Program-made: the position numbers and the translations under genes
Part shown: piece by piece, positions 5,114-36,259 of the stretch
How the letters are laid out: each line of letters opens with the position of its first letter
Numbering within the stretch: position 1 is the stretch's first letter
Notes under the pieces: generated by a model
Told to the model about the DNA's origin: nothing
What the model saw: only the letters and a program-made list of their open reading frames with translations
The model's database searches: none
Assembly (NCBI RefSeq): GCF_026914265.1
Contig: NC_069127.1
Location: forward strand, 1,617,682 to 1,681,681
Origin: Mya arenaria
Lineage: Eukaryota
Direction: 5' to 3'
Length of the DNA stretch: 64,000 nucleotides

Positions 5114-8100
5114 GTGAGTGCACACAGAACAGGTGCTAAATATAGACCACACTAGTACTAGTTTCAGACCCAACCCAGGGGTATGATAATAATGACATTT
5201 GATAGTATCTATATGAATATGTCATTGAAGATGAATCTCTCGGCTGATTGCTCCTTATGGAGATCAGACTTCCCATGCAATTTTAAACAACTTGGTAATC
5301 ACACACCTTATATGATTTAAATACCTTGAAATTACTAGGCCATTTTAATGCTGTCAAAGATTTCATATAAAATATACTTTGTTACATTTTCCCTGTAAAA
5401 CTCAACAAATTCATAACAAGAAGTGAATGTGATCTGTGATCGAAATATGTTTAATATATGACAAATAAACTAATTTATTAGAGGTTATTAAAATTTATTG
5501 ATATATGAAATTTAGATACAGATAATAAGATATATAACATTTTCTGTTGAGGATTCAACGTTAACCTTCTTAGAAATGACTGTTGTTTGTACGACTTCTC
5601 AAGATAATGTTTATCATGTGGTACACATAGCAGAATTCATCAACATAGTTGATAATCACTTATTAAATAAAATGTCTATACATTAATTAGTCAAGTTGTT
5701 ATTTAAAAATATAAGAAGTACATTTATTATTTTGATTTCTTAGTTTAAACAAATGAACAGATTAAAGAGAATTGTTCATGGTTTGTATAATTAACTTCTT
5801 ACGAAAAAGAAATGTTACATAATAAAGTGAAGCAAATAATTAGTGTTAAAACTAAGATACTGACAGCTGGAATCCTTCAACAAATGCTGATATTTGCTCA
5901 AATATTTGAACACCACAATTTTGAAAAACATTAGCAGTGTGATTCCCCAAAGTGTTGCTGTGTGATTAGTTGATCACTTTATTAAATGTGATGTTAACAA
6001 TGTCTTTGATAAAGGTTAAAATATCAATCTTGTGTTGTCTTTGTGACTGAGAGGTTAAAGCTTCATTTTTCTAATTTTTTCCTGACTGTACAGTGTACTA
6101 GCATGGGTTCGCTCCCCACGAAAACCAGAATATTTTTTAATACTCTTATTGGTTTTTTTTCTACAATTTCGGTATCAAAGAGTGAAATAATAATAAAATA
6201 AGTGTTTTCAGATGCATTTTGGGAAAACTAGTTTTGGTCCAAAAACATAAGCGAGTCCCTTTAAAATGATAATAATAATGAAATTATAAAGTTTAAAAGT
6301 TGAAATTCTTGAAAAAAAATGCATATTTATAATCAAATAACAGAATATAAATGAGATCATATTTATTTTGTGTATAAATATAACAAAAACAACTGATTTG
6401 TAATCTAATGAATCAAAGAATCAGACTTTTGCATGTAGAGGCATTCTTTTTTGGGGGGACTTATTCTAATGATGTCTGCTTTGACTACAGGACATGAAGC
6501 TGCCTCAGGGCAACTACCGGTCCACTATAAATGTTGGGTCAGATTCCGGCCGACCCCAGGTAGAGATGACGGACCTGCCAACAGAGAAGCCTAGGGCCCC
6601 AGTGGACGAGCCATTTCCACTACCAGAGATCCCTCACCTTCCCAGGGTTGAAACAGGTCATGATGTCATGAACCTTACACTGCATCAGGTATGTCACTAT
6701 CTGTACTGTGCATTAAACAAAATAGCAAGGCAGTATCTATTAGTGCTGCAAGATAGCCATCTATATGAATGGAATATCCACTATACTCCCTGCAATTTTG
6801 AAATTCATCCTCAAATTTAGACTAAAGTCAACTTGTTTTACTTTGAGTCAAATTTATGTGCAACTCAAGTTACCTGTGTTGGGGGAAAATGGAACTAACT
6901 GCAAATTGCTATGTTGTTACCATGAAAATCAAACCCTCACTCTGCAGACAAAAACACTTCCATATTGCTATAAAAGCTGGCTTAATCATCGGTCAGTTAG
7001 AATGTGGGGCTCTTTATAAATATTAAAAATGAAGTCAAAGTTTATTTGGAATATTTTTTTTACCCCAGTGTGCAAGAAATGGGGATGTAAAGAGCTGCAA
7101 GATCTTGTTGAGCAACATGGGCGGGAATGTGAAGAAAAAGATAAATGTTCGAGATGAAGATAACCTCACCCCGCTCCACTACGCTGCACGATACAACCAG
7201 CTCAACGTCCTCAAACTACTCATTGATAACCATGCAGGTTTATTATTTTTAAAAATCTTATAAAACTAAAATGTAACACAACATAGTTTAGTAGAGGATG
7301 TGCCCATTTCTAAACATTATATTAATTTTAAAGAAGGCAATGAGTATTACATATTAATGTTGATGGATTATTTTGGAGACTGATGATTTATCGGGAACAT
7401 AAATAAAGACTTGATATTCATGATTGTTTTTTTATGTCATTGTTTTGAAAATCAGATGACCATCTAGATGAACACAGTTTGTGCTTGGATATATTTTATT
7501 GAAAAAGACTATAAACTAGTGTAAATAAGTGGTGTCTTCTGCAGATTTGAATGCACGTGATGATGAGGACCTGACAGCCCTGCACTATGCTGCCCGATTT
7601 AAGAGGGAAACCAAGAACAGACGAGTGGATGGAGATGAAGACCAACCACAGGTATGTACTGTCAGGCAGGGCAGGAGTGTCCTGTCAGGTAGGGCAGGTA
7701 TATACTGGGGAGGTATGTACCGTCAGGTAGGGCAGGTATGTTCAAGGAAGAAGGATGGGTATGTACTGTAAGGTAGAGCAGGTATGTACTGCCAGGTAGG
7801 GCAGGTATGAACTGCCAGGTAGGGCAGGTATGTACTGCCAGGAAGGGCAGGTATGTACCGTCAGGTGGGCAGGTATGTACTGTCAGGTGGAGCAGGTATG
7901 TACTGTCAGGTAGGGCAGGTATGTACTGCCAGGAAGGGCAGATATGTGCTGTCAGGAAGAGCAGGTATTTTCTGCCAGGTAGGGCAGGTATGTACTGTCA
8001 TGTGGAGCAGGTATGTACTGTCATATGGAGCAGGTATGTACTATCAGGTAGGGCAGGTATGTACTGTCAGGTGGAGCAGGTATGTACTGTCAGGTAGGGC

Positions 8101-11100
8101 AGGTATGTACTGCCAGGAAGGGCAGGTATGTACTGTCAGGTAGGGCAGGTATTTTCTGCCAGGTAGGGATGGTATGTAGTCAGGAAGGGCAGGTATGTAC
8201 TGTCAGGTGGAATATGTATGTGCTGTCAGGTAGGGCAGGTATGTACTGCCTGGTTGAGCAAGTATGTACTGTCAGGTCATGTTTGGGTGGTAGTCGGTGT
8301 TTACAAATGACCATAGGGTATAAAAGGTCATGTGGGGGTGGTAGACTGTTTTGACACATGGCTGTCAGATAAAAGAGGTCATGTAGGTTGTTATACATGA
8401 CTATCAGGTTCAAGAGGTCATGAATGTGTGGTAGTCACTTGTTACACATGGCTGTCACATATAAGAGGTCATGAAGGAGTGGTAGTCACTTGTTACACAT
8501 GGCTGTCACATACAAGAGGGCGTGAAGGGGTGGTAGTCAGTTATCACACATGGCTGTCAGCTACAAGAGGTCATGAAGGGGTGGTAGTAAGTTATCACAC
8601 ATGGCTGTCAGCTACAAGAGGTCATGAATGGGTGGTAGTCAGTTATCACACATGTCTGTCAGCTACAAGAGGGCATGAATGGGTGGTAGTCACTTGTTAC
8701 ACATGGCTGTCACATATAAGAGGCCATGAAGGGGTGGTAGACAGTTATCACACATGGCTGTCACATACAAGAGGCCATGAAGGGGTGGTAGTCACTTGTT
8801 ACACATGGCTGTCACATACAAGAGGGCATGAAGGGGTGGTAGTCAGTTATCACACATGGCTGTCACATACAAGAGGCCATGAAGGGGTGGTATTCACTTG
8901 TTACACATGGCTGTCAGCTACAAGAGGTCATGAAGGGGCAGAAGTCAGTTATCACACATGGCTGTCACATACAAGAGGCCATGAAGTGGTGGTATTCACT
9001 TGTTACACATGGGTGTCAGCTACAAGAGGTCATGAAGGGGCAGAAGTCAGTTATCACACATGGCTGTCACATACAAGAGGTCATGAAGGGGTGGTAGGCA
9101 GTTATCACACATGACTGTCACATACAAGAGGCCATGAAGGGGTGGTAGTCAGTTATCACACATGGCTGTCACATACAAGAGGTCATGAAGGGGTGGTAGT
9201 CAGTTATCACACATGACTGTCACATACAAGAGGTCATTAAGGGGTGGTAGTCAGTTATCACACATGGCTGTCACATACAAGAGAGTAAAGCCCATAACTC
9301 TAATAATTGTAAACTTTTTTCACCTTTTTTGATTGAACCCCACCCCCAGTCAATTGTTGATGTTTGCTCATATTTCTGGGTTATTTCCTACTTTGAGTAG
9401 CAGTTATATAAGTATACAGTTATATAAGTACTCTCCTATTCCTTGTCAGGAGAATGGCGGTATGCCCCACAGTGACACAGCTGAGGACCTGGAGTCCCAG
9501 ACAAGCGTAATATCGTACCTTGTGACAAAAGGCTCAGATGTGAACGTGCGTGACCTTTATGGACAGACACCGCTACACTATGCCTGCATGAGAGCCAACG
9601 AGGTCGCCTGTCGTGAGCTGCTGAAGTACAGACAAGTCAACATTGAGGTGTGTCAATCTAGACTTCTGAGTTCCTAGAAAACAAGTTTTCTTAAAGCATA
9701 CAAAATTCAAATGAGATTCATCAATATCAATTTAAAAATAATTGCTCTTATACACAGCTTTTGTTTTTTAATTCAGTAGCTGTCAGGTGTGTTAAAGATA
9801 TAAGTGTACATAATATAAAATGAAAAATCATCGTTAATTGACAATTAAAAGCCCATTAGCTGCCACTTTAATGTAATCAAATGTAAATCATACATTTCAA
9901 AATATATAAATGGGATATGTTGTAATATGAGATTATTTCATAAAAGTATTCTTAGAAAGAAAAATTCACAGTTAAACTGTAAAAAAAAATGCTTTGATGG
10001 CTGCAGGGATCGAACCCTGGTCCTTTCGTTCAGCAGGTGGGAAATAATAAAATGCTTGTTTATTAAAATGTCATCCCTTCCAATTAATGGCCAGACTGCT
10101 GGCCTTTATAGACATCTTGATTGATGAACATCTTTGCTTCCTACCCCTTTCCTATATGCCTGGCGCCTGGCATGAAAGCAATTAGTACCCATTATTCAAT
10201 AGCTGCTGCATCACAGCAACTGGCCAAATCAGAACAAGACCCTTGTGAGACTTGAAACGTCATCAGGTGGATGGCTTTACCAACATGCAACAGTGACAGA
10301 TGACTGCATAATGTTTTATGGAACTTATTAATACAAATTATAGTTTTGCGAGAATTTAAAATATTAGAGAAATAGTTGCTGTATTCAAACTTTTATGTTA
10401 CTGTGAGTTACTTGAACATACTTTTGTCAACTAATTTCTCTAGTCAGCAGGTCAATAAGAGGTGTTTAAATGGCCTAATGCAATCAGTAATTCATTTATT
10501 TATTGGTAAATATAAACAAATACACAGGTTATACAAGAGTGTACCGCTTAAATGTATTGCATTATAATTGTCAATACTGTGGCAATTATGAAATGTTATT
10601 GTACACCAACAAGTGGCTGTATTCCTTCTTTATGAGATAATAACCAGAATGAACCTTGTTCACTAGGCAGCAGACAAGCAGGGTATGACACCCCTACACA
10701 TGGCCTCCTCCCACCATCAGACACTCATCGTGAAGATGTTGATCCGATCAGGGGCTAATCTGCGATGTAAAGATGACGAGGACACGACTCCCCTACATGC
10801 TGCGTGTACGGAGGGCAGCATCGAGATTGTGCGCAAGCTGTTCAATGCAGGTGCTAAATTGGATGGATGGGTGACAATCCAAAGTGTAAGAGTCATTTTA
10901 TATTATTTAGATAACAGGAAAGTATTATACCACGTGTTTGCTTTTTTACTTTTTTAACCTAGTTTTTTTTTGTGTCATTTCAATTTTGCAGATTTTGCTA
11001 TCCAGTATGGTCTGACAACTGATAGCTTTTGAGGATTGGTTAATCTCCGAACTATTTTGATTTCATTAAGAACATCCTTGTGATTTGATATATCATGTTT

Positions 11101-14100
11101 GTAATAAATGTTCACATATTTCTTTGGTACTTATAAATAATTTGTTAAATAATGATGCATTTAATTAAACAAATGTTCATTAGATTTTCCAGTTCCTTCT
11201 TATGTTAGTGAATGTTGTAGGAATTGTTCTTCTTTGTTTACAGATGGTAACAGACAAGGACATTGATGGGAACACATGTCTGAGTCTGGCAGTGGAGAAC
11301 GGCCATTATGAGGTGGTCAAACTGTGTCTTGAGAAACGTAAGTAGCTGTGTGCTACATTATAATCTGAATCACATTTGTTGCATTTTATGTAACCATATG
11401 TATCTTCACCAAAAGAAATAGAAATGATAAAATATATATTTTAATATTAAGTAAGCTTATCAACTAATCTGAGTGTCAGCTTGTCAATTGTGTTTAAGGT
11501 CATTCAAGTGTAAAAGGTTCAGATATAGCATGTATGAGATATACCCAAATAAGAGGCAATTCTGTGTAGTTAGCTCACTACTACCACTGACAATCCTAAC
11601 ATGCTATTTGTCATTCAGGAGCTGATGTGAACACCCCTAACACTATCTACATGTATCCGCTGCACCTTGCCGCGGTGAACGGGGACCTACGTATTGTACG
11701 CCTGCTCATAGAGCACAATGCTCGTATTGACGCCCTCAACAACGAGCAGGCTACGCCACTGCACAAGGCCGCTCAGTACAACCACATACAGGTGGTCGAG
11801 TTTCTTGTGGACAGGTGAGCAGGTCATTATTAAACAGGCCAAGGTTGAATTTCTTTCAACTTTTTTGGCAGAATTTTATCTTTTTAACTTTTGGTATTTT
11901 TCAGCATAGAATTATTTTGTGTATTGTTTACTATTTGTATGATTAGTATTGTCATAATTATCATTTCAATTTCATTCTTACAAAAAATGGGAAACAAATG
12001 TGACAGTAGTGAGATAAGTGTTAAACTCCAGTCAAAGTTGTCATAGCAATAATACTTAAATCAACAGCACAAACTCATCCATTGTGAGGGGGAGATTGAT
12101 CTAGTTGTAAGTTGTCTGACTCGATTCCACAGGAGAAAGTTCTCGTGGCCTCTAAAAAAAGGCACCAGCTATAGTCAATCTAAAATAATGTAAACTAACT
12201 AAGCTCTGCACCACAGGGAAGCTGACATTGAGCGTCGCGATGAGGAGAACTACACGCCATTGTTACTGGCTAGCGTGTACGGACGTGCACCCACTGTTGA
12301 CCTTCTCATCCAGAAGGAGGCTGATATCTCTGCTGTCGACAAGAATGACAAGACAGCCATTTTTCTAGCAGCTGAGGAGAACCAGCTGTCTGCGCTGGAG
12401 GTTTGAATAAAATTGATGTAAATTAGTGTTTACCATTCACAAGTATTGAACAAGGGGAAGATTTTGTTTTCATTTCTTCAAAGTGTTATCTTCTGCAAGT
12501 ATCATATTTCATTATTAAATTTTATAAAATGAAGATAATTTGTATTGGTCTTTAGCAAGATAGATACTGGTGAATGTGTTGAATATACAATGTATGTTGT
12601 ATATGTGTACATTCATGTATTTCAGGCTTTGTTGAAGTATGACCCAGTGAAGAATCTCATTAACACCAGTGATCGCTATGACAACGATCCTCTCCACATT
12701 GCTGCCATGAAGGGTTATCTGCATATTGTCAGGGTGTGTGGCAAATGATGTTATGTCTTAATATTCAAGATTTATAAGATCTACATGAACACTGTCATCA
12801 TAATGTATTTGTATTCTGTTAACAATCAGCAAATGACTGTTTACAATCTAACCACAAATTGATCTTACAAAGTGGAATTTTGGAGTATGATATATAAAGT
12901 GCATACCCTACGGTACCTTGTTGGTGCCTGATTGTATTGTGGGACATGCTGTACATGTTTTTAAGAACTCTTCCATATTACAGTGCCTGTTGAAGAATGG
13001 TGCCGATCTGGACAGTAAGAACGAGGAGGAGCAAACCCCGCTTCACCTGGCTGCTAAGTTTGGGAGAACCAAGTATGCTATTACTTTTATTATTACATCA
13101 TAAATGAACATGCCATCATAAAATAACATCATTATATATATATGATCTGAGAGTAAAATAGAAATTTGTTACTGCTGCTGTTTCTTTCATGCACAGTTGG
13201 TGCATTTTTCTTAAGTTAAATATTATTTGTTCACTGAACTATCTGTTTTTTTGGAGTAAAAGTTTTACCAAACAATCAGTTAATTTTTGTTTCTTGCACT
13301 GTTTGAATTAGGATGTTGATACATAGAAGTACGTGTTTCCTATCTACCCTTTAGCATAGTACGTGAGCTGGTGACACAGGATAAGAACTCTGTAAATGAC
13401 GAAGATGAGAGTTCCAACACGGCCCTTCATCTTGCGGCACTTGCAGGTCACGCCAAAGTCGCGGAGGTCCTGCTGGAGTTCGGAGCTGATGTTGCTGCAA
13501 GGTATGTAGACATGCTCAAACAGTGACTAGAAAAACACATTCAAATTGTCTCTCTCCCTGTTCAAATGAGACTGGAAGCCAGTTGCATAGAGGTAGCACT
13601 TTTTAAAGTACCACATATGAGCCCCATTTACCTAAAGCAATACCCAGATCATAAAAGGGCTTATAGAACAATTTAATTAATAAAAAAGAGTTTTACGGCT
13701 CATTTCAAATGCAAATTTTCTATGCGACGCTATTCACATGGCAGCACAATTGTAGCCATGGGAACCTATGATTATGAGCAGTTTTGAGAAAATTATAAAA
13801 TATAACACTGGTGTGTGTTTTAGGAATGTGAGTATGTGGACCCCACTGGACTGTGCGGCAGCCAAGGGTTGGATGAAGACGGCAAAGGTTCTCCTGGAAG
13901 CTGACTCCCCTATTGACCCTATGGACAAGGCAAAGGTATGATGGCTTAACTAGGGTTGGGATGGACAAGGCAATGGTATGATGGCTTAACTAGGGTTGGG
14001 ATGGACAAGGCATAGGTATGATGGCTTAACTAGGGTTGGGATGGACAAGGTAAAGGTATGATGGCTTAACTAGGGTTGGGATGGACAAGGCAAAGGTATG

Positions 14101-17100
14101 ATGGCTTAACTAAGGTTGGGATGGACAAAGGAAAGGTATGATGGCTTAACTAGGGTTGGGATGGACAAGGCAAAGGTATGATGGCTTAACTAAGGCTGGG
14201 ATGGACAAGGTAAAGGTATGATGGCTTAACTAGGGTTGGGATGGACAAGGCAAAGGTATGATGGCTTAACTAGGGTTGGGATGGACAAGGCAATGGTATG
14301 ATGGCTTAACTAGGGTTGGGATGGATAAGGCAATGGTATGATGGCTTAACTAGGGTTGGGATGGACAAGGCAATGGTATGATGGCTTAACTAGGGTTGGG
14401 ATGGACAAGGCAAAGGTATGATGGCTTAACTAGGGTTGGGTTGGACAAGGCAAAGGTATGATGGCTTAACTAGGGTTGGGATGGACAAGGCAAAGGTATG
14501 ATGGCTTAACTAGGGTTGGGATGGACAAGGCAAAGGTATGATGGCTTAACTAGGGTTGGGATGGACAAGGTAAAGGTTTGATGGCTTAACTAGGGTTGGG
14601 ATGGACAAGGCAAAGGTATGATGGCTTAACTAAGGTTGGGATGGACAAGGCAAAGGTATGATGGCTTGACTAGGATTGGCATGGACAAGGCAAAGGTATG
14701 ATGGCTTGACTAGGGTTGGGATGGACAAGGCAAAGGTATGATGGCTTAACTAGGGTTGGGATGGACAAGGCAAAGGTATGATGGCTTAACTAAGATTGGG
14801 ATGGACAAGACAAAGGTATGATGGCTTAACTAGGGTTGGGACGAAAAAGGCAATGATATGATGGCTTAACTAGGGTTGGGATGGACAAGGCAAAGGTATG
14901 ATGGCTTACCTAAGGTTGGGATGGATAAGGCAATGGTATGATGGCTCAACCAGGGTTGGGATGGACTGAGGTTTTCTTTTAAACTATAAGAGTGAGATTG
15001 AGCTGAATTATCCTGGTTTCATTTAAGTGAAACATACCACAAGTGTCATCCTTTTTACGATGTCACACTGAGAGCAAAAGTATGAAATTAAATGAAAAGT
15101 AAATAAAACTTACCTTCACATATATGCATGTAGCACATAACATATAAGTGTTTCTTCTTATTTGTAGACAACACCCCTTCACTTAGCTGCCAGATATGGT
15201 CACGTCGAGGTTATCAACCTTCTCCTTGACTGGGACGCCGATGTGGAACAACGAGACTCCGATGGCAACAACTGCCTTGATCTTGCAATCGACCATAACA
15301 ACTCGTATGATATTTGCTTTGTTTTCTTTGTGTAAAACTCATCTAGGCCATATAAAATTGTTTTTATGTTTAGGGTCAATCCTTATTATGAAAACTTATA
15401 TAGCTTTCCTGAAAAATCAGACAAACCCCCCCAAAAAACATTACTAAATGAGTGACATCCTATGTAGATTCTCAATTGTCAGATTGTATTTCCACTGCAA
15501 AATGGGTTCAAATTAAACTTGTAATTAAGTGTGTTGATCATGGGAGTCAAACAGAATGCTTCTTTTTCTGATATCAAACGCCAAGAATATTAGAACAAAC
15601 TATGAAGCATGTGGTTTACACTTGTGTTCTATAGTTGGAATAATAGACAAAGGTGATTAAAAATCTTCAGCAACATTGATGATCATATAAAATGTTTTTC
15701 AATCGTGAAGACACTAAACATAGAAACGATTGGGTATGGGTCTCTGTGTTTACCCCGGTACTTAAAGTTTTCTTTCACTTTTACACTGATGTTATTGCAT
15801 TATTGTATATAACCACTCAACTAACATTAAGGATCCATAACTGGGCATAAACAATCTTTGATGTTGAAATTGCATACTAACATATTTTGATGCAGAACAC
15901 CTGATTTCTAACAATTATCTGTTTCGTAGATTGTCAACAAACATGTAGAGTGACATGTTCTCTAATGTAACAATTTAATCAACAACTACAATGAAATTCA
16001 TAAACAAGTTCATTTTATAAATGACCAGTTGTTTATTTTGAAGAATAAATAAAATACAAGATTGCACTAGTTCAAAATGACTGCCATTCCAGGAATGTAG
16101 CGACCGCGATCATCAAGTCTGACTACTGGCATGAGGCCCTACGCAACCACACCCTGGACCTCATTACCAACAGACATGACACGCCCATGAGGAAACTCAT
16201 CAGGAAAATGCCAGGCAAGACAAATGTCTTATACATGTATATGCCAGGATTGCTTATAAGGACTTTTATTTAAAGTATCAGGGTTCGAATTTAACTTTGA
16301 GGAGCACTCGCAAAATTTAGCGAGTGCATTTTGAGGCAACTCGCAAAATGACAAATCAACTTGCAATTTCATTATTTGCTTTATTCCCTTATAATATTGT
16401 CTTATTAAAGTAGGAATTAACACCTAAGACATATTATGAATATTAAAAAGTATCAATCTTGAGTGACTCGACTACTAGAACTTGTTGATGGCTTATTCTA
16501 TTTGGGGGTTATGGAAAGACTCGTCTGATGCTAGCAGCTTTTTGATAACAAAGCTGTCCAATAATTTGACATTGTTCACTTTGTATATTTACCCTCGCCA
16601 TCGGTTAATTTAAGACCCATTCGACAAGCACGCTACATATTTCATTAAGTCTATAAGTATTAAAAACAATAAAATAATAAATTTAAAATAAAAAAGCAAC
16701 AGTAAATGTAGCGTTGATACTTTGGACCATGAAATATATCGATCAACGAAGTCTATTCATTTTGACAGGATGATGGGGTTTACATATAGTGCGCAAAAGC
16801 GCTAAATTTAGCCAATGATTGAGCTAGGTGATTACGTCATTCGTATTTACTTTGTATTATGCACACCTCGGAGCATCCCGGAAAGATTCGAGATAAAACT
16901 TGGCCTTTTCCGTATTTGTTCTATTTTTGTAAACCTACTTGAGCGTGACTCCGTACTGTCTTCTTTATACCGGTAGTGTAAACATGCCACTTATAGGCTG
17001 TTTACACTCGACTACATATCGGAATTAAGTTCATGTTTATTCTACTTTCCTTTTAACATTTTGTGGTCTAGAAAAGCCACTCGCAGAATTTTGCGAGCTT

Positions 17101-20100
17101 GAATAAAAGTCACTCGCAATTTCCAAATGTCGCTCACATTTTGTGAGTATGCGAGTCTAAATTCGAACCCTGAGTATTACAGAACCATCTTCAGTTAAAA
17201 TTGTACCATTCCCTGCATTTCAACAATTTCCTTAACTGTTTTTTTTTCCACTGGAAGAATCAGTTATGGTTAATTTATATTCTGCTTTTAAAATATCATA
17301 TTATTATACATAAATTTAAGTTTTTAAGTACCGGTAAATGATTTCTCATCACCCTGTCTAAAATATGGAAAAATCTATGACCTTTAATAAATTATGAATA
17401 ACTGTTAATGTTGATCATTTCTGGAACTTGTTTTGAAAGAGTTTGTCAACATTTGAACTGCTGTTTAGTCATCTGATATTCATGCATGGATGCTTCCTTT
17501 CAGTCTAAACTGTACTATACTATAACATACATATGTTATTTATTAAATAAGGCTCATGAATAATTGTATGTGTATATCAGACGTAGCTGAGGAGGCTTTC
17601 AATCGGTGTATGGAGGGTAACAAAGAGAATATGGAGAGTCCCAACTACTCAATCACCTTCAACTACGAGTTCCTTGATGACCTTTACTCCATGCTCAGTT
17701 GGAGCGAGAAGGGAACCAGCGACTCAGGATCCTCAGATGGTAACATACTAGGAGATATCAAAATTTACATGAGCTCTTATGTTCTGGTTAATACGATTAC
17801 AGTTACTAAATTATAATTGTCATGTTGGAGTTAATATTCCCATATTTTATGAAATCTACAATGGTACAGAACTGGAACACAAAGTTCATGAACAAAATAT
17901 TTCCTGAGATTAGAATTCTGTGAATCAGATGCATCACTTGTTGGGAGAGGCCATCATTTTTCTAGGAAAGGTTACTATGAGTTTGACCTTTAAACTATTG
18001 ACCCTAATAATCAAAAGAGTTATTGACTAACCATGACAAATTTGCATACCAAATGACTGTACTAGTCGTTCAAAAGTTACCAAGAGGAAATGAGTGTGAC
18101 AAGAACGTCAACACCAGACAAAGTAGTCCCCCTGTGTCTGCAATGCTTCGCAGGTGACAGAGACATGCTGAACATGAAGCTCTCTCAGTACTTGCCTCTA
18201 GTTTACTCAGTAAGATTTGTTTCTCCAGGGAGTCTGTATGATGATGAAGATCACCTGACAAAGAAGGCACTGCCCTACACCACAGACTCCGGAACATTCA
18301 AGAAGAACCATCCTCTCATGATCATGGTAAATGTTTTGTATGTTGGATTTAGTCTGCTAAAATTTATAATTAAAAAGACCATAAATTTTCATTGACTCCA
18401 TTTTTAGTTCTTGTAACATTATATTTTTTTACTTTTTTAGAGTCTACCTCTCCTTGAAGTTATTCTCTCACAGTTGCCAATGTCAACATTGATAAACATA
18501 CCACATACAGCAAACTCATGGGCCTTAATAGTATGAAAAAGAAATTTGTCAAATATTTACTATTATGAAAAAGTGGAAGTTAATATAACGTCTGAATTAT
18601 AAAGAATACTTCAGCTTTTGAATACAATTAATGAAAATAAAAGAAACATTGAAGAACTATTTTAGTCAGTACCTTCTCTTGTTACCAGGTGAACACAAAG
18701 CGGGAAGACTTGCTAGCTCATCCCCTTGTTACCGCTCTGCTGCGCTACAAGTGGACCAAGTTTGGACGCACATTCTACTACATCAACTTCTTTGTTTATG
18801 CCATCTTTCTCACCTTCCTGACCGGATACGTGGTCTCCACAGATGCTCCCTACATGATCAAGTGAGTGGTCGGTGCTAAAGTGTAAAATTGACCATTACT
18901 CTGTTTCTAAATGTTGCTGACTGTTAGATATATCATTGCCATCCAGTATTGTTATAGTAAAATACATCTACAAAAAGTCCGTACTTCCAGAAAACATAAC
19001 CAAAGAATATAATGAATCAGGGTCCACATGCATTTGTTTGTACAGGGTAAGCATATTACGGAATTAGTAAACCTCTCCATTGGTTTAACAGTTATGAATA
19101 TTTATATCAGGTTGATTCATGGTAATGTCAATTGCTTAGGGAAAAATTGTTTGGTTTATTTTAATGAACTATTTCTATGGTACGGACAGTTGAAAATACT
19201 GCTTTTAGCCGATATCGCAAGCTGTGCAATAATTTGTACATCAAAATTACGATAACACAAGAGTTAAACACTAGTTTTTACAGTGATTCATGCATGTTTC
19301 ACCATCCATAAACTTAAAGCAGGGGAATGGTTGAGTAGGCTGTCTCTGTGACAGCTGATAATATTGAAAAGAAATCAGTTTTTAAATCTTCTGCTATATA
19401 TAATATTTGATTGTGCGCGGAAAAATTGTTTATTTTTGCTAAATAATCTTAATTTCAATATAGATATAAAAACTCTTAGTTAATCAGATGGGTGATCCCA
19501 AAATATATATTTCCTAAAAAAATCATTGGAATATGTTGCAAAAATCTTGGTTCTACAGTATGTGGGGCATGTAGTTGTCTTATATCTCATCAACTAAATA
19601 ATCATGCCGTTTCAGTGTTTCTGAAATTACTGGAACTACATCAGGAGGCAGCGACTGCCAGCGACTGTCTGACAGTGGTAAATACAAGCAGGACTGGTTT
19701 TCAAAGATAGGGAAATATGCAATCATCGTTCTAGCTGCATGGAACGTGTTACGAGAGGTATTCATTTGAGTCTTTGAGATTTTGCTTGATGTTTCTTTTA
19801 ATTGCAACATAAGAAAACATGTAGTCAAATCCTTATCATACATGTTCCAGTTAATCAAAAACAGCTTTTATAACAGGAAGTAATTGCTTCAAAGTTGCAT
19901 AGTAACAACAACTTATTTTGATTAAAAGATTGATAAAGAGCAATGCATAACAGTCATAGAGATTTTTATAAATTTTACTGAATTAAGAATTAACCACAAA
20001 ATTATTTCTCCCCATTTGACACCAGAAAGCTAAAAATTGTTTGTTGGTCAGGACAGTCGTTGCCTGCATATTCCAAAAACTTCACACCATTGTTAATTTT

Positions 20101-23100
20101 AATAATTTGTGTTTGCAGTTACTCCAAATCTACCAGGCAAAGCTGAACTACGTGAGCTGGGAAAACCTGATTGAGTGGGTCACCTACGTCACCTCGCTGT
20201 TGTTTGTGATCGACTTCGAGGCATGTCAACAGTCTACAGGATATAGAACTGTAAGACAAATAACTGTTTAATGGCTGAAGAATATAATTTGAATGTATCA
20301 CTTTACATGATGGCGTTATTTTTAATAAAATAATCTATGTTCTATAAATAGGTATTTTAACTATGAGCTGTTTGTATTTTGCTGTAGAGGTGGCAGTGGA
20401 ACATTGGCACGGCAGCCATATTCCTGGCATGGATCAACCTCGTGCTGTTCGCTCAGAAGTTCCCACGGTTCGGAATCTACGTTGTCATGTTCAAGGACAT
20501 TCTGAAGACTTTCATCCAGTTCTTCGTAGTCTTCTTTCTCTTCATTATAGCCTTTGCCCTCGCGTTCTACTGTCTGCTACAGAATCAGGTCAGCTGACAA
20601 TATACATACAGATAATTGATGTCAATTCCCCAATGCAACACTTATTGACAACGTTAATAAGCTTGTCTGTTTTTCAAAGTAAAATGTCAAGTTATTGTCA
20701 AAGCCTTGGTGCTTTAGTTAGCGTAAACAAGTTAAATCTTGTCCATAACTCAAAAAACAGTCAGGATATTTACATGAAACAAAGCAGACATGTTTCCAGT
20801 GGCAATACGCTGATATGGATCAAGGGCCATAACTCTAGCCTAATAAACATCATGTAATGCCCCTTATCGACTGAAAGAAACAGACATGCATAGGCACCGC
20901 TTCCGACACTCTTGCCTGCTGTTTTCTGGTGTCCTTTGGACTCCACATCTGAGTTTTATGGGAAACATGGAATGTTAAAAGTAGTTAGAAAGTTTACTCT
21001 TTTAGAATTTTAGGCGTCTGATGTAGAGACCCCATATGATTTCAATATATGATTTGAAAGTTTTTTTTCTGTGCAGAAAAAGAATATGTAGAATTATAAT
21101 AACAATATTATCCCAAGCAAGCTTTGTTCTGCTTTAAAATGTCCAATTGCCATTGAAATAATGAGCAAAATTACAAACTGTTATACCTTAGGAATTATAT
21201 ATAACGCTGTTTTCGTCATTTATTTGAAAATGTATCACCAAGAATCAAAATTTAACATTATGATTAAGAAGCTATCAGAGAACTAGCTTATTAACTTTTG
21301 TGAGTCTTCCTCTTTCTTTTAACAGCCAGCCTTTGGAAGTGTGTGGAAGTCGTTGATTAAGACGTCAGTGATGATGATCGGAGAATTTGAGTATGATGGT
21401 ATCTATGTGGAAGGGGAAGTGTTCTACAAAGTGCTGGCATACATACTGTTTGTTGTATTCATGGTTGTCATGTCCATCATCATCATGAACTTACTGGTAA
21501 GAATACAATTAGTGTTGATGTTTAACTGTCTTGAGCAGTAAGAAATTTAATTTTACCAGAAACATAACATACTTATATGAAGGTTGCGACTAGTCTTGTG
21601 ATGTAGGGGTCCCACACCAGAGGTTGTCAGTTTGTTCCTCACCAGGGGAACCTTCTCTTGGTGGCTCAAAAAGGACATCAGAACTTGCCTCAATTTCTCG
21701 CAATATCTTAAGTGTAACAGATTTAAGTATCATATTTCATAATGCCGAACTATTGTCTGAAACTTAATTTTATAAACAAAAGAAAAGTTATCGTGAATAA
21801 GTAAAGTAATATACTCTAAAAGTCTCAAAAGAGAACTTCAAAAGCAGAAACTTACACAATTCATACCAAATCAAAAATAGTGAGCTCAGCTTCATCATGT
21901 TATACAAGACTTAGGATTGGTTGAGAAAGTGGGGCCTGGTTTCTACCTAGGGAGATTCATGTCAGCTTATACCTGTGTTCTTGATCAAGCTTAAACAAAA
22001 TATTATAAACTAACATACTAAAATAAGATCATGGTTAAAGTTTTGACAATCATATTACAGAAGTTAACTGTACAGCTATTTGATGTATCATTACCTTATC
22101 ATGATGGTTTTTTCGATTTCTAAAGAATGTTTATTCTACAATTATAAAATTAATTTCTTCTCAGTTTTATTTGAGTATTTTCATTGAACAGTATTTTCAT
22201 TGAACAGTTGGAATCGAAAGTCATATTTCACTTTAATGACTGACTGTATAGAATGTACAAATGCAACAAGAATTGAGTACAATGTGTGTCAGAGAGAAAT
22301 GTCAGATTAACCAATAATGAATGTTTCAAATATCCCACAAATGACTGGCCACTAATCACGCCCCCTGTTTTTGTGGTGTACAGGTGGGTCTGGCCGTAGA
22401 CAACATCAAGGAGGTGCAGGAGCAGGCTGAGCTGACCAGGAAGGGCATGCAGGTACGGTATACAACTCACATCACTCTGGCTAAAGTTTATATTGTGGTG
22501 ATAGTGACAGAGAAGGATGCGCTTTTTTATCTTCATAATCTATATTATATACTATCTTAAACAATATACTGACTTGCATTTGCAATTTTAGGTGCAAAAG
22601 TGCTTTCATAATTATAATGGTAATCTATCATTAGTTATAAATTTATAATGGTCGAGCACAGCAATAAAAGTTTGACTCCTATGAGCAGTTTTGCATATTC
22701 ATTATTTTACGTTTGACTCCTATTACATATTTTGCATATCAACTGTTAATTAATGTAGCCACTTTAAGACAACTGTTTCTCCTATGCAACATTTACCTTT
22801 AAATCTGCAATAGGTCGAACTGGCGTTGGATGTGGAACGAATGGTGCCAGACTTTTTCCGCCGTAAGTTTGTTGTGCGGAAGGACACACTGCGACCTAAC
22901 GAAGGAATCAGCTTCTTCTTTAACAAGGCATTCGGTCTCGCAAGCTACGGACTCACAGCACAGACCATCTATAAGGCACTCAATCCCGAACTCGTAAGTT
23001 GGTAGTTGTTATGAATGTGCTTGTAGAATGGAGCCTCTGGATTATTTCGTGTTTCTGTTTATCAACTTCATGAGCTAAACTACATGTACTTAATGGTGTG

Positions 23101-23778
23101 GATGTGCCAAATGCATCCCTGTATTGTCTTCCAACTATGTTTTGTTGGGGTTTTTGAGGTGAAAAGATCAAATATGTAACTATCAATTAAACAACCATTT
23201 ACTATTAATTTAGTCAATTAAACAATCAGCTGGATACTGTTTTGTTTGTAAATGACAGAACAACATTATTGAATGACCCAATGAATTCCCTGAAGAACCT
23301 CGCCAACATGTTGGGTTGCCCCAGTTTTTTCAATGGTGACAAATTGTTTTATTTCAGGAAGTAATTTTTTTATTTTTTGTTTTTGCACATTTTTCGAAGG
23401 TTTAATATTGTAATGCCATTATTAATTTAATCATTGGCACACATCAGCATTATATTAGCATTCTGATTGATAAGCAAATGTTAAATCTTTTCAAAATGTA
23501 ATGAATTTTTCAGTATAGTGCCTTTTACCTATTGATTTAATGATTATATCTAAAACATGAACACCTGCATGCAGGATGAGCTAGAGGCAGTGAAGGAGAG
23601 CCAGGAGAAGCTACAGAACACCATAAACAAGATGCGCTACAACAACAAGGAGATGAAGGGCCAACTCAACAATCTCGAGGGGATGATGAAGGCTCTCATG
23701 TCTGCGCAAGGCGTCACATGGCATGATGAAGATTTCCAGGAGTCAGAGGAGATCAGCCCCATGGGAGCCTACTCATAG
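5099..23778 (+). CDS. TRPA1: TRPA1-like transient receptor potential ankyrin cation channel gene, 25 coding exons, about 1227 aa
   Basis: Exons 3-14 encode ankyrin repeats ([256 protein letters not shown]). Exons 16-24 align colinearly with the human TRPA1 pre-S1 to TRP-helix region (DVAEEAFNRCMEGNKENMESPNYSITFNYEFL; VNTKREDLLAHPLVTALLRYKWTKFGRTFYYINFFVYAIFLTF; RWQWNIGTAAIFLAWINLVLFAQKFPRFGIYVVMFKDILKTFIQFFVVFFLFIIAFALAFYCLLQNQ; PAFGSVWKSLIKTSVMMIGEFEYDG...FMVVMSIIIMNLL; VGLAVDNIKEVQEQAELTRKGMQ; VELALDVERMVPDFFRRKFVVRKDTL). The C-terminal exon is coiled-coil-like. Summed exon length is 3684 nt (divisible by 3), with consistent phases at every junction. Confidence 0.85.
6491..6688 (+). CDS. 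TRPA1: TRPA1-like exon 2 (DMKLPQGNYRSTINVGSDSGRPQVEMTDLPTEKPRAPVDEPFPLPEIPHLPRVETGHDVMNLTLHQ)
   Basis: Acceptor tgactacag|, donor CAG|gtatgt. The length is 198 nt and it is phase 0. Confidence 0.7.
7069..7237 (+). CDS. TRPA1: TRPA1-like exon 3 (ankyrin repeats)
   Basis: Acceptor ttaccccag|, donor GCAG|gtttat. Peptide [56 protein letters not shown]. Confidence 0.8.
7545..7651 (+). CDS. TRPA1: TRPA1-like exon 4 (ankyrin)
   Basis: Acceptor tcttctgcag|, donor CACAG|gtatgt. Peptide [36 protein letters not shown]. The donor is the first unit of a 23-bp minisatellite. Confidence 0.8.
7652..8276 (+). repeat. 23-bp minisatellite (about 27 units, caggtatgtactgtcaggtagggca) that starts exactly at the exon 4 donor of TRPA1
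   Basis: The real donor CACAG|gtatgtactgtcagg is followed by tandem copies that each contain CAGGTATGT. Confidence 0.95.
8327..9276 (+). repeat. 51-bp minisatellite (about 19 units) in the same TRPA1 intron
   Basis: The unit is acacatggctgtcacatacaagaggtcatgaaggggtggtagtcagttatc. The ORFs at 8428..9114 and 8879..9097 are translation artefacts. Confidence 0.95.
9448..9645 (+). CDS. TRPA1: TRPA1-like exon 5 (ankyrin)
   Basis: Acceptor ttccttgtcag|, donor ATTGAG|gtgtgt. Peptide [66 protein letters not shown]. Confidence 0.8.
9985..10035 (-). other. tRNA-related SINE-like 3' end (T-arm CAGGGTTCGATCCCTG followed by a T9 pol-III terminator)
   Basis: The minus strand reads ...cctgctgaacgaaaggaccagggttcgatccctgcagccatcaaagcattttttttt. 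No complete cloverleaf could be found upstream. Confidence 0.3.
10667..10870 (+). CDS. TRPA1: TRPA1-like exon 6 (ankyrin)
   Basis: Acceptor gttcactag|, donor GATGG|gtgaca. The donor was chosen because exon 7 must start in phase 0. Peptide [68 protein letters not shown]. Confidence 0.7.
11244..11337 (+). CDS. TRPA1: TRPA1-like exon 7 (ankyrin)
   Basis: Acceptor tttgtttacag|, donor GAGAAAC|gtaagt. Peptide MVTDKDIDGNTCLSLAVENGHYEVVKLCLEK. Confidence 0.75.
11619..11814 (+). CDS. TRPA1: TRPA1-like exon 8 (ankyrin)
   Basis: Acceptor ttgtcattcag|, donor GACAG|gtgagc. Peptide (R)[64 protein letters not shown]. Confidence 0.85.
12217..12400 (+). CDS. TRPA1: TRPA1-like exon 9 (ankyrin)
   Basis: Acceptor ctgcaccacag|, donor CTGGAG|gtttga. 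Peptide (R)[61 protein letters not shown]. Confidence 0.85.
12626..12733 (+). CDS. TRPA1: TRPA1-like exon 10 (ankyrin)
   Basis: Acceptor tgtatttcag|, donor GTCAGG|gtgtgt. Peptide [36 protein letters not shown]. Confidence 0.85.
12984..13072 (+). CDS. TRPA1: TRPA1-like exon 11 (ankyrin)
   Basis: Acceptor ccatattacag|, donor ACCAA|gtatgc. Peptide [29 protein letters not shown]. Confidence 0.8.
13355..13501 (+). CDS. TRPA1: TRPA1-like exon 12 (ankyrin)
   Basis: Acceptor ctaccctttag|, donor GCAAG|gtatgt. Peptide (N)[48 protein letters not shown]. Confidence 0.8.
13824..13935 (+). CDS. TRPA1: TRPA1-like exon 13 (ankyrin)
   Basis: Acceptor gtgtgttttag|, donor GGCAAAG|gtatga. Peptide (R)NVSMWTPLDCAAAKGWMKTAKVLLEADSPIDPMDKAK. 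The exon end and donor are re-copied about 26 times in the downstream 40-bp array. Confidence 0.8.
13936..14962 (+). repeat. 40-bp minisatellite (about 26 units) that re-copies the last 15 nt of TRPA1 exon 13 plus its donor
   Basis: The unit is ATGGACAAGGCAAAG|gtatgatggcttaactagggttggg, and the first unit is the genuine exon-intron junction. Confidence 0.95.
15168..15304 (+). CDS. TRPA1: TRPA1-like exon 14 (ankyrin)
   Basis: Acceptor cttatttgtag|, donor AACTC|gtatga. Peptide [45 protein letters not shown]. Confidence 0.8.
16093..16214 (+). CDS. TRPA1: TRPA1-like exon 15; ends at a GC-AG donor (CCAG|gcaaga)
   Basis: Acceptor tgccattccag|. Peptide (S)NVATAIIKSDYWHEALRNHTLDLITNRHDTPMRKLIRKMP. 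The only donor that keeps the frame into exon 16 (DVAEEAFNRCME, matching human VAKVVLDRCMK) is AG|GCAAGA, a GC-AG consensus. No in-frame GT alternative exists. Confidence 0.7.
16278..17173. mobile_element. MITE-like non-autonomous DNA transposon (896 bp) in TRPA1 intron 15
   Basis: Terminal inverted repeats tcagggttcgaatttaa... and ...ctaaattcgaaccctga. There are subterminal reiterated motifs (actcgcaaaat, cactcgcaatttcc, gcgagtgc). The element is flanked by GTA on both sides, a possible 3-bp target-site duplication. It has no coding capacity. Confidence 0.7.
17581..17739 (+). CDS. TRPA1: TRPA1-like exon 16 (pre-S1 linker)
   Basis: Acceptor gtgtatatcag|, donor GATG|gtaaca. The peptide (D)VAEEAFNRCMEGNKENMESPNYSITFNYEFLDDLYSMLSWSEKGTSDSGSSD matches human LDRCMKKSNEDPKSPDYFVEMDFKYLQ. 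Confidence 0.85.
18154..18326 (+). CDS. TRPA1: TRPA1-like exon 17
   Basis: Acceptor tgcttcgcag|, donor ATCATG|gtaaat. Peptide (G)DRDMLNMKLSQYLPLVYSVRFVSPGSLYDDEDHLTKKALPYTTDSGTFKKNHPLMIM. Confidence 0.75.
18689..18861 (+). CDS. TRPA1: TRPA1-like exon 18 (pre-S1/S1)
   Basis: Acceptor ttgttaccag|, donor ATCAA|gtgagt. The peptide VNTKREDLLAHPLVTALLRYKWTKFGRTFYYINFFVYAIFLTFLTGYVVSTDAPYMI matches human VQNNRIELLNHPVCKEYLLMKWLAYGFRAHMMNLGSYCLGLIPMTILVV. Confidence 0.85.
19616..19757 (+). CDS. TRPA1: TRPA1-like exon 19 (S1-S2 loop/S2)
   Basis: Acceptor gccgtttcag|, donor CGAGAG|gtattc. Peptide (N)VSEITGTTSGGSDCQRLSDSGKYKQDWFSKIGKYAIIVLAAWNVLRE. Confidence 0.8.
20119..20250 (+). CDS. TRPA1: TRPA1-like exon 20 (S3)
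   Basis: Acceptor gtgtttgcag|, donor AGAACT|gtaaga. The peptide LLQIYQAKLNYVSWENLIEWVTYVTSLLFVIDFEACQQSTGYRT matches human AGQIFQQKRNYFMDISNVLEWIIYTTGIIFVLPLF. Confidence 0.8.
20388..20588 (+). CDS. TRPA1: TRPA1-like exon 21 (S4-S5)
   Basis: Acceptor ttttgctgtag|, donor AATCAG|gtcagc. The peptide RWQWNIGTAAIFLAWINLVLFAQKFPRFGIYVVMFKDILKTFIQFFVVFFLFIIAFALAFYCLLQNQ matches human QWQCGAIAVYFYWMNFLLYLQRFENCGIFIVMLEVILKTLLRSTVVFIFLLLAFGLSFYILLNLQ. Confidence 0.9.
21326..21496 (+). CDS. TRPA1: TRPA1-like exon 22 (pore helix/S6)
   Basis: Acceptor ctttcttttaacag|, donor TTACTG|gtaaga. The peptide PAFGSVWKSLIKTSVMMIGEFEYDGIYVEGEVFYKVLAYILFVVFMVVMSIIIMNLL matches human DPFSSPLLSIIQTFSMMLGDINYRESF...FVPIVLMNLL. 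Confidence 0.9.
21685..21945. mobile_element. MITE family copy A (about 260 bp) in TRPA1 intron 22
   Basis: Ends cctcaatttctcgcaa... and ...gagaaagtggggcctgg. The interior (aaaaatagtgagctcagcttcatcatgttatacaagacttagg...) is homologous to 29090-29160. Confidence 0.55.
22384..22452 (+). CDS. TRPA1: TRPA1-like exon 23 (S6 end/TRP-like helix)
   Basis: Acceptor tggtgtacag|, donor ATGCAG|gtacgg. The peptide VGLAVDNIKEVQEQAELTRKGMQ matches human IGLAVGDIAEVQKHASLKRIAMQ. Confidence 0.9.
22814..22993 (+). CDS. TRPA1: TRPA1-like exon 24
   Basis: Acceptor atctgcaatag|, donor GAACTC|gtaagt. The peptide VELALDVERMVPDFFRRKFVVRKDTLRPNEGISFFFNKAFGLASYGLTAQTIYKALNPEL matches human VELHTSLEKKLPLWFLRKVDQKSTIVYPNKPRSGGMLFHIF. 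Confidence 0.85.
23575..23778 (+). CDS. TRPA1: TRPA1-like terminal exon (C-terminal coiled coil), stop TAG at 23776-23778
   Basis: Acceptor cacctgcatgcag|. Peptide DELEAVKESQEKLQNTINKMRYNNKEMKGQLNNLEGMMKALMSAQGVTWHDEDFQESEEISPMGAYS*. A candidate AATAAA lies at 24327-24332. Confidence 0.8.
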   Translation, partial: DELEAVKESQEKLQNTINKMRYNNKEMKGQLNNLEGMMKALMSAQGVTWHDEDFQESEEISPMGAYS

Positions 23779-35090: not shown

Positions 35091-36259
35091 TAAAAAAAAA
35101 ATAATAATAATAATTTCGAGGTTCAGTACAAGCCAAACCTATAACCGTTGCAACATGTGTAGCTGTAAAAGAAGTTTAGCAAAATTTACGAAAGATTTCA
35201 TTAGATTTCCAACAATAAAGCCTTTGCAATTTTTAAGAAATGTCTTTATACAAAATGAATGTTTTTGTGTCCAAATAGTCAGTTCTACCCAATCACCAAT
35301 GTTTTGAGGCTTCGCTACTTGGTAGAGAGCTATTTGCATTATTTAACCAGAAAATGATCTTAATCCACTTTTTTACATTATTTTATTGAAAATCTTTCAG
35401 GTTTGGAAAATAATATCAAGAACCTTCAAGACATTCTTGGGTAGGGAGTCTTGGACATTGTGACACAAAACAGTTATTTTGTCGACAGACTTTCCCTAGA
35501 AATTGCAAAATTAATGCTTTTTGTTCCTAGATCTGATCAAATATTCTTACGTAAAACTTGGTCAACCCCTTATTAGCCCAAAATATTTCGCAATTGATGT
35601 TTGGTTTAATGACGAAAAAAATTGTTCATCAAACCATACAAGACATGAATATTTAATACGTTTTAATGTTGGTCTCGCCGACCTACTTTTGCACTATGGA
35701 AAGCCATTAGATATAATATACACATGTATAAAGGACCTATCTCACGAGTGCACGTTAAAACTCAATAAACATTGCATGGCTCTTTGAAATATTTACAGCT
35801 CTATTTATAATGCTGTGAGAGAAAGAAACTGTATATCGAGGCCATTTTTCTCATTGATCAGTAGAACAATTGAATGATAACATGATACATTGTTAACGAT
35901 TGACGGTGTTCTTTGTAGTGCGCATTTAATACATAATAATTTGTAAACACGGAAAAATGGTTAAATTTCAGAATCATTCATGCCATGCTATAATACGCTT
36001 ATCAAGTTTAATAGAAGGATCTCTTAAGTTATATTTGGTGTTCGCACTTATTTGTGGGACAATGAAAATCGTGGAATTACTCCATTTACTATAGCTCCAT
36101 ATTATGTAGAAAAAATGTGACGGTGAATACAATATTTATTTTCATAGAGCATATTTTGTCAGTGTATGTGACTCGGTACAGTCGTTTTTTCATAGATCAC
36201 CCTGCCCTGTTCGCATGTGCGAAAAAACTACGATTGGCAGTTAAGGTCCCGTTTTTCTC

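Follow-up and report, generated by a model that had tools for sequence, protein, structure and literature searches.

How a minisatellite comes to start exactly at a splice junction, and how the exon before it can be spliced when its 5' splice site is followed by many copies of itself, are the questions raised by one intron of the bivalve mollusc Mya arenaria. The intron lies in a 64,000-nucleotide (64-kb) stretch of contig NC_069127.1 (GCF_026914265.1, positions 1,617,682 to 1,681,681), hereafter the window, whose own numbering is used throughout; a slash in a sequence marks a junction. There, intron 3 of a TRPA1-like gene opens with a tandem array of a 23-bp unit (7649–8281, + strand), which an earlier sequence-only reading had taken to be seeded by the donor of the preceding exon. 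The answer we favor, with a probability of roughly 0.78, is that the 23-bp array is a junction-spanning ('mirage'-type) minisatellite that arose by local duplication, is tolerated by first-donor choice and is probably functionless.

The structure of the array was determined first from its units. Tandem Repeats Finder (TRF) reported it in two parts, 7655–7698 (1.9 copies) and 7707–8277 (25.0 copies, 80% matches), and a dissection that kept the register gave 28 units between 7649 and 8281 with the consensus CAGGTATGTACTGTCAGGTAGGG. When the window was scanned with this consensus at up to 3 mismatches, 20 matches were obtained, all within 7649–8235, and none appeared in 100 shuffles. Unit 1 (CAGGTATGTACTGTCAGGCAGGG, 7649–7671) agreed with the consensus at 22 of 23 positions and was composed of the final 3 bases of coding exon 3 (CAG) and the first 20 bases of intron 3. 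The array is thus a head-to-tail repeat with a period of 23, inside the 10–160-bp range of junction-spanning minisatellites, and its first monomer crosses the exon/intron boundary and includes the donor, with an exon share of 3 nt compared with 12–24 nt in the sister arrays described below. The donor is reiterated in the downstream units, as 16 further CAG/GTATGT 9-mers and 11 copies of CAG/GTAGGG. Two claims of the sequence-only reading were therefore borne out: about 27 copies (TRF, about 27; dissection, 28) and a start at the TRPA1 donor, since unit 1 is in register with the exon end and with CAG/GTATGT, the probable donor. A third, that every unit carries CAG/GTATGT, was not, as only 17 exact 9-mers were found among the approximately 28 units. 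Units 2–6 and 24–28 were degenerate and those of the interior homogeneous, a pattern common in tandem arrays. The GC skew was +0.46 on the sense strand, and the unit includes the heptamer GGGCAGG, which we take to be the heptamer also present in the human minisatellite 'core' GGGCAGGAXG, a core reportedly described by Jeffreys in 1985.

The gene that carries the array was modeled as 24 coding exons (6494–23778, 3606 nt, 1201 aa) without an internal stop, with splice sites chosen by hand from continuity of frame and phase. Open reading frames (ORFs) on the + strand were ankyrin-like at about 6.5–15.3 kb and ion-channel-like at 18.6–22.5 kb. In the 1201-aa model, Pfam detected Ank families and PF00520 (Ion_trans) at residues 862–1066, giving the TRPA1 architecture of long N-terminal ankyrin repeats followed by a six-transmembrane ion-transport domain. 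The best PDB match was human TRPA1 (E = 1e-114, collinear; 6wj5 covers residues 508–1105), the named database matches to the transmembrane part were 'TRPA1 homolog' entries (Dreissena, Ciona and others), and the closest named N-terminal relative was a Tegillarca granosa protein with 60–75% identity per exon. The gene had been called TRPA1; these matches uphold a TRPA1-like identity, and because several TRPA paralogues exist in molluscs, the assignment is kept at 'TRPA1-like'. One side observation on the model concerns intron 14, whose donor at 16215 is a GC donor (CCAG/GCAAGA). It is the sole frame-preserving exon 14/15 junction, and intron 14 is probably a GC-AG intron.

The exon in front of the array is coding exon 3 of this model, and it would be 'exon 4' only if there were one upstream 5' untranslated exon. 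It encodes ankyrin-repeat sequence, spans 107 nt on the + strand (7545–7651; acceptor tgcag/AT, end ...DLNARDDEDLTALHYAARFKRETKNRRVDGDEDQPQ) and was delimited by frame continuity and orthologous exons, reading tgcag/ATTTGAATGCACGTGAT... to ...GACCAACCACAG/GTATGTACTG. Immediately after it lies the putative authentic 5' splice site GTATGT (7652–7657, + strand), whose context CAG/GTATGT matches the U1-complementary consensus CAG/GTAAGT at 8 of 9 positions. This is the first GT past the exon, and it joins 9450, the start of coding exon 4, in phase 0 (...DQPQ/ENGGMPHSD...). Coding exon 4 (ENGGMPHSDTAEDL...YRQVNIE, 9450–9647, + strand) is matched by the orthologous ORFs P0001–P0005, which are 65–81% identical. 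The phase at the end of exon 3 is shared by its orthologs in L001, a metagenomic relative (...GATGATGAAGAT/gtaagc), and in Tegillarca (...GATGGAACT/gtaagt). Frame, phase and orthologous exon ends all point to 7652 as the real donor.

Most of intron 3 consists of repeats. About 1632 of its 1798 nt (91%) are tandem repeat, and the remaining 166 nt (9284–9449, + strand) form a unique 3' end with a polypyrimidine tract and the acceptor ccttgtcag/GAG. Besides the 23-bp array, the intron contains a 51-bp minisatellite of about 20 units (8275–9283, + strand), the first three of them degenerate; TRF called 8411–9283 (17.1 copies, 88%), and unit comparison traced the register back to approximately 8275. 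The two arrays abut directly at ...CTGTCAG/GTCATG, and their units are not similar above shuffles (p about 0.13). The earlier description of a 1.8-kb intron, more than 85% tandem repeat, with a second, unrelated 51-bp minisatellite directly adjoining the first, thus holds; its start for the second array (8327, in a span of 8327–9276) has to be moved upstream. The 51-bp array has a GC skew of +0.26 on the sense strand and nearly lacks donor-like sites. It was slightly more alike at lag 102 (0.912) than at its basic period (0.886); for the 23-bp array and the 40-bp array described below, no lag was better than the basic period.

Whether the 23-bp array was generated in place was assessed by searching for the 23-mer in the window and in Joint Genome Institute (JGI) metagenome contigs. 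No copy was found in the window outside the array, and the metagenome contigs gave only two single chance matches, in GC-rich, nonrepetitive, bacterial-looking contigs; in neither set did the unit occur at multiple unrelated loci. The orthologous intron 3 was then compared. It lies at the same position and in the same phase in L001 (about 424 nt) and in Tegillarca granosa (about 833 nt), and no tandem repeat was present in either, the junction being single-copy in both. In two further relatives, no array was found in the 470–790 nt upstream of the next exon. Intron 3 is therefore 1.8 kb here versus about 0.4–0.8 kb in relatives. The repeat-free orthologous introns argue that the 23-bp array is local, derived and, as judged from these comparisons, lineage-specific. 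Together with the uniqueness of the unit in the window and the four sister arrays, they support the proposal that it was generated from the junction and is not a dispersed satellite. A separate observation was made on the annotated Tegillarca protein KUTeg_007393 (P0019), which lacks an exon 3 ortholog, though a phase-matched exon is present in the genome (L009, Tegillarca granosa GCA_029721355.1, CM056596.1, 15986–16094). Its model ends at about 345 aa, short of further TRPA1 exons downstream, and has probably been fragmented or mis-spliced.

The 23-bp array is not the only one of its kind; five donor-junction arrays in three genes were found within the 64 kb, and the four sister arrays each contain 12 to about 24 nt of clear exon sequence per unit. 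The clearest junction-derived array of the window lies in the same gene. Coding exon 12 (13824–13935, + strand) ends ...CCTATGGACAAGGCAAAG/ (PMDKAK), and a 40-bp array of 26 copies (13921–14966, + strand; TRF, 93% matches) extends from it into intron 12. The 40-bp unit begins with the final 15 nt of the exon (ATGGACAAGGCAAAG, coding MDKAK) and continues with gtatgatggcttaactagggttggg, and unit 1 is identical to the consensus. The junction is reiterated in 25 copies, 17 of them with the exact donor 9-mer. An in-frame TGA occupies +4 to +6 of intron 12, so any use of a pseudo-site would include in-frame GTA TGA. The array has a GC skew of +0.57 on the sense strand, and its unit has no similarity above shuffles to the 23-bp or the 51-bp unit. 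It ends (14961–14972) with a partial unit, ATGGAC, and then unique sequence, as would be expected had slippage involved a pair of direct repeats, ATGGAC, at a distance of 40 bp. The Tegillarca ortholog of exon 12 ends CCTATGGACAAGGCCAAG/gttagt and has no 40-bp array, indicating that the exon part of the unit is ancestral coding sequence and that the array was copied from the junction. P0105/L007 was also considered as an orthologous exon 12 junction and rejected, because the gene is more distantly related, its exons are merged and its intron lies elsewhere (LLLD/gtaagt). Across the TRPA1-like gene, the intron's own donor junction is reiterated only in introns 3 (24 times) and 12 (25 times), and not once in the other 21 of 23.

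The other three junction arrays are on the minus strand. A polysaccharide-lyase-14-like (PL14-like), alginate-lyase-like gene was recognized from PF21294 in a neighboring exon and a GGKLPGLWGG...CSGG motif in the next. One of its exons (33462–33562) ends ...ACACTCGAGTACGAG/GTGAGTAACC, also written ...ACACTCGAGTACGAG/GTGAGTAACCGACCAACCACG, and adjoins a 55-bp array of about 35 copies (TRF, 35.4; 31282–33482), of which the 2-kb part at 31282–33338 aligns with the exon end in the same register; a diverged unit, made up of the exon end and its donor, comes first. In copy 2, GAG/GTGAGT is retained, and the interior units have no GT (GGGAAGAGT). The remaining two arrays belong to a coiled-coil gene at roughly 42.5–62 kb, which has weak Pfam coiled-coil matches only. 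In the first, an exon bounded from ORF and phase only (52856–52968) ends ...CTCAAGGCCAAG/GTCAGTGTGTG, and there are 7 units of 25–37 bp (52645–52867), the exon end and six more, each restarting with (C/T)T(C/G)AAGG(CCAAG)GTCAGTG.... The next exon (51813–51925) ends ...CCTCACAGAAGCAGCTAACCTCAG/GTATGCGGGG and is followed by an old, degenerate array of 12 diverged copies (50998–51836), which TRF did not call. Each copy has about 24 exon nt and the donor region, over about 800 nt in all; AG/GT is lost in most, and 8 of the 12 copies have scores higher than 28, the maximum among 100 shuffles.

A comparable array was also found outside the window. In the TRPA1 ortholog of a relative (L008, on the 1.1-Mb ENA contig ERZ25073293, ctg32770l), an 83-bp unit is repeated 26.6 times (L008 4750–6952) and consists of 66 nt of the exon 17 ortholog plus gtaagtttttacataac, donor included. 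Each of these units also has an acceptor-like ...tgcag/T, and 57-nt pseudo-exons are conceivable there. At the Tegillarca TRPA1 locus, large intronic arrays begin 38 and 145 nt past donors and do not span a junction.

Taken together, these arrays suggest how the 23-bp array may have formed. A short segment comprising the end of coding exon 3 and the first 20 or so bases of intron 3, donor included, would have been duplicated in tandem, likely by replication slippage between short direct repeats, and later growth to about 28 copies could have proceeded by unequal exchange or gene conversion. The spliceosome would take the most upstream donor, the one nearest the exon 3 acceptor, leaving the downstream copies intronic, and the array would be tolerated because of this choice, which is consistent with exon definition or with 5'-to-3' scanning as in human F7. 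G-runs just past the donor on a G-skewed sense strand may predispose junctions to amplification, and a first unit protected by selection may keep re-seeding the array. The 23-bp array itself would most likely be without function of its own.

The strongest rival to this neutral account is that the array has been selected, as a battery of sites for the U1 small nuclear ribonucleoprotein (snRNP) that strengthens exon definition, blocks premature cleavage (telescripting) or supplies regulated alternative donors. The abundance of donor-like sites speaks for it. Donors were scored with an approximate matrix, for ranking only, at a cut-off of 2.5 bits; the real donors of the gene have a slightly higher median, 3.0 bits. 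In the approximately 640 nt of the array, 32 GT sites scored at least 2.5 bits: 17 exact CAG/GTATGT (the real one included), 11 CAG/GTAGGG and 4 other variants; GTATGT hexamers numbered 22. The density is 50/kb, versus 0.94/kb in the gene's other introns. In addition, the donor of the upstream intron at 7238 is weak (CAG/GTTTAT, 6 of 9 U1 matches, the lowest class in the gene), which leaves the short exon 3 flanked by a weak donor on its upstream side and a very strong one at its own end. The GTATGA columns are the least variable of the 40-bp array (2/156 cells versus 33/884), the predicted fold of the array RNA is more stable than those of shuffled sequences (z = -5.0), and human IFI6 and CBS are described as using the first one or two pseudo-sites (PMC1557585).

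The consequences of using these sites were followed in frame. Read-through from coding exon 3 reaches an in-frame stop at 7769, 117 nt into the array. Only the sites at 7727 (+75 nt, +25 aa) and 7736 (+84 nt, +28 aa) would give in-frame, stop-free extensions, which speak for regulated alternative donors and would lengthen a variable acidic loop; all others cause a frameshift or include the stop at 7769, so that nearly every pseudo-site leads to a premature stop. In the 40-bp array, the reduced variation at the donor columns was not significant (Fisher p = 0.15). The predicted fold does not convincingly separate the real site from the pseudo-sites, as it would if RNA structure masked the latter. 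Relatives that have no array splice the orthologous exon, as judged from their gene structures. Pseudo-donors have decayed or been replaced in the older arrays, namely in the PL14 interior without GT and in most of the 12 coiled-coil copies, which argues against selection for many U1 sites. On balance, we regard a selected function as unlikely. A recursive splice site, which would consist of a polypyrimidine tract and YAG/GTAAGT, was ruled out for the 23-bp unit, in which GGGCAG/GTATGT is preceded by G-rich sequence (37.5% G, 13.9% C) that lacks a pyrimidine tract.

Less probable still is that the donor was captured, that is, that the array arose from purely intronic sequence and the exon boundary later shifted onto the CAG/GT of its first unit. 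The sharing of just 3 exon bases would fit such an origin, as would the last codons of the exon (QPQ), which have no counterpart in L001 or Tegillarca in a loop whose length varies between species. However, relatives have the intron at the same place and in the same phase, coding sequence (12–66 nt, ancestral in the case of the 40-bp array) is clearly contained in the other four junction arrays and in that of L008, and one process for all six arrays is a simpler explanation than two. The least likely alternative, a dispersed satellite or transposon-borne repeat inserted by chance beside the donor, draws on the transposon-like tandem repeats of the window and on the confinement of the 23-mer search to the window and metagenome contigs, and is highly improbable given the exact register with the exon end, the absence of a second copy in the window or of a repeat form in the JGI contigs, and five other junction arrays that each have a locus-specific unit taken from their own exon end.

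Local duplication tolerated by first-donor choice does not by itself explain where these arrays are found. Of the eight large arrays in the window, five are at donors (binomial P about 1e-6 to 1e-7), and within TRPA1, two of three arrays start at one of the 23 donors (probability about 0.003). Both are rough, after-the-fact figures; random placement is not a credible explanation of the clustering. As for sequence correlates, the three TRPA1 arrays are G-rich and G-skewed on the sense strand, versus a skew of about 0 in ordinary introns, and a GGG run occurs in the first 40 nt of both array-bearing TRPA1 introns (2/2) and of none of the others (0/21). We put forward only tentatively, and with less than even confidence, that junction-spanning minisatellites are a systematic feature of this lineage, which would imply a process linked to the 5' splice site. 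Such a process may be nucleation by G-runs and skew beside donors, or a selectively protected 'master' first unit. If this is true, the amphioxus 'mirage' phenomenon extends to molluscs, and nature would offer numerous arrays in which up to about 26 identical donors compete.

Several points weigh against the account given here. First-donor use is inferred from the frame, the stop at 7769 and the orthologous exon ends. With only the 3 exon bases CAG in the unit, the 23-bp array taken alone cannot separate 'junction first' from 'array first, donor recruited', and the local uniqueness of the 23-mer rests on the 64-kb window and the metagenome contigs. The proposed role of G-runs breaks down at the PL14 array, in which C and A predominate on the sense strand. 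Finally, neutral tolerance does not alone account for five of eight large arrays lying at donors, so a bias remains.

Other repeats of the window were recorded as well. A 24-bp array of about 169 copies occupies about 4 kb (36253–40308) between the PL14-like and coiled-coil genes, with the minus-strand unit GGGACACGGTGCTAACGGAGAAAA; no sign of an adjoining exon was found at 36253–40308. Tandem units of 145–151 bp at 40913–41994 and 45485–45807 share ...GACCTTGACCTTTGACC..., and a tRNA-like 69-bp unit is repeated at 56212–56414. These 145–151-bp and 69-bp repeats look transposon-derived or derived from short interspersed nuclear elements (SINEs), different in kind from the junction arrays. An Rfam search of the window gave no match.

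The 23-bp array belongs to a described class, that of the human F7, IFI6 and CBS junction-spanning variable number tandem repeats (VNTRs) and the amphioxus 'mirages', and alone it is one more case of a known curiosity. The clustering at donor junctions, rather than the single array, is the part worth following. The 16 further exact strong donors at exon 3 and the 25 junction copies at exon 12 offer a natural test of first-of-many 5' splice site choice, in an organism far from the mammals in which this choice was studied. A genome rich in 'mirage'-type repeats would also permit a census of which junctions amplify and why, and junction arrays are apt to mislead gene prediction and the mapping of RNA-seq reads across junctions. 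In the literature searched, no such repeats were described for molluscs.

One close human parallel is the 37-bp VNTR in intervening sequence 7 (IVS7) of F7, whose first monomer comprises 4 exon nt and 33 intron nt (Borensztajn et al. 2006, PMC1557585). As here, the first monomer lies across the exon/intron boundary and the donor is followed by identical pseudo-donors. The F7 pseudo-sites are functional, yet the most upstream site is always chosen, as was tested experimentally (PMC1557585); for the 23-bp array, the splicing pattern is inferred. F7 also differs in having 5–9 copies and a weak donor (TGG/gtgggt), versus about 28 units here, 17 with the strong CAG/GTATGT. For the 12-nt minisatellite of IFI6 (6-16), the part of PMC1557585 that cites Turri et al. 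1995 describes an authentic site and 25 pseudo-sites, of which the first two are used constitutively, and the same part names CBS IVS13, LMNB2 and PDGF intron 4 as further junction minisatellites. As far as that account goes, IFI6 resembles the 23-bp array in reiterating its donor from the exon boundary at a similar copy number. It differs in that its unit, being 12 nt long, stays in frame, whereas the 23-nt unit shifts the frame and meets an in-frame stop 117 nt into the array.

The Rogers model, in which tandem duplication of an AG/GT segment provides extra splice signals (PMC3265369, PMC4974935), shares the duplicated segment and the added signals with the present case. Intron gain by this route was nevertheless ruled out, because the intron pre-exists in L001 and Tegillarca and the acceptor lies outside the array in the unique sequence at 9284–9449; no intron was created.

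Another close likeness is to the amphioxus 'mirages', minisatellite-like tandem duplications across exon boundaries in Adh3, the globins BflGb6 and BflGb9, troponin C and PGBD5, which are reported to leave splicing undisturbed and whose cause and mechanism are stated to be unclear (PMC3087553, PMC3902484). In both cases, units of 10 to about 160 bp cross the exon-intron boundary in several genes of one genome, and the array edges are left out of homogenization. The 'mirages' differ in occurring in cephalochordates rather than a bivalve mollusc and in duplicating both 5' and 3' exon boundaries, whereas the five arrays of the window and that of L008 are all on the donor side, and copy numbers are higher here (26–35).

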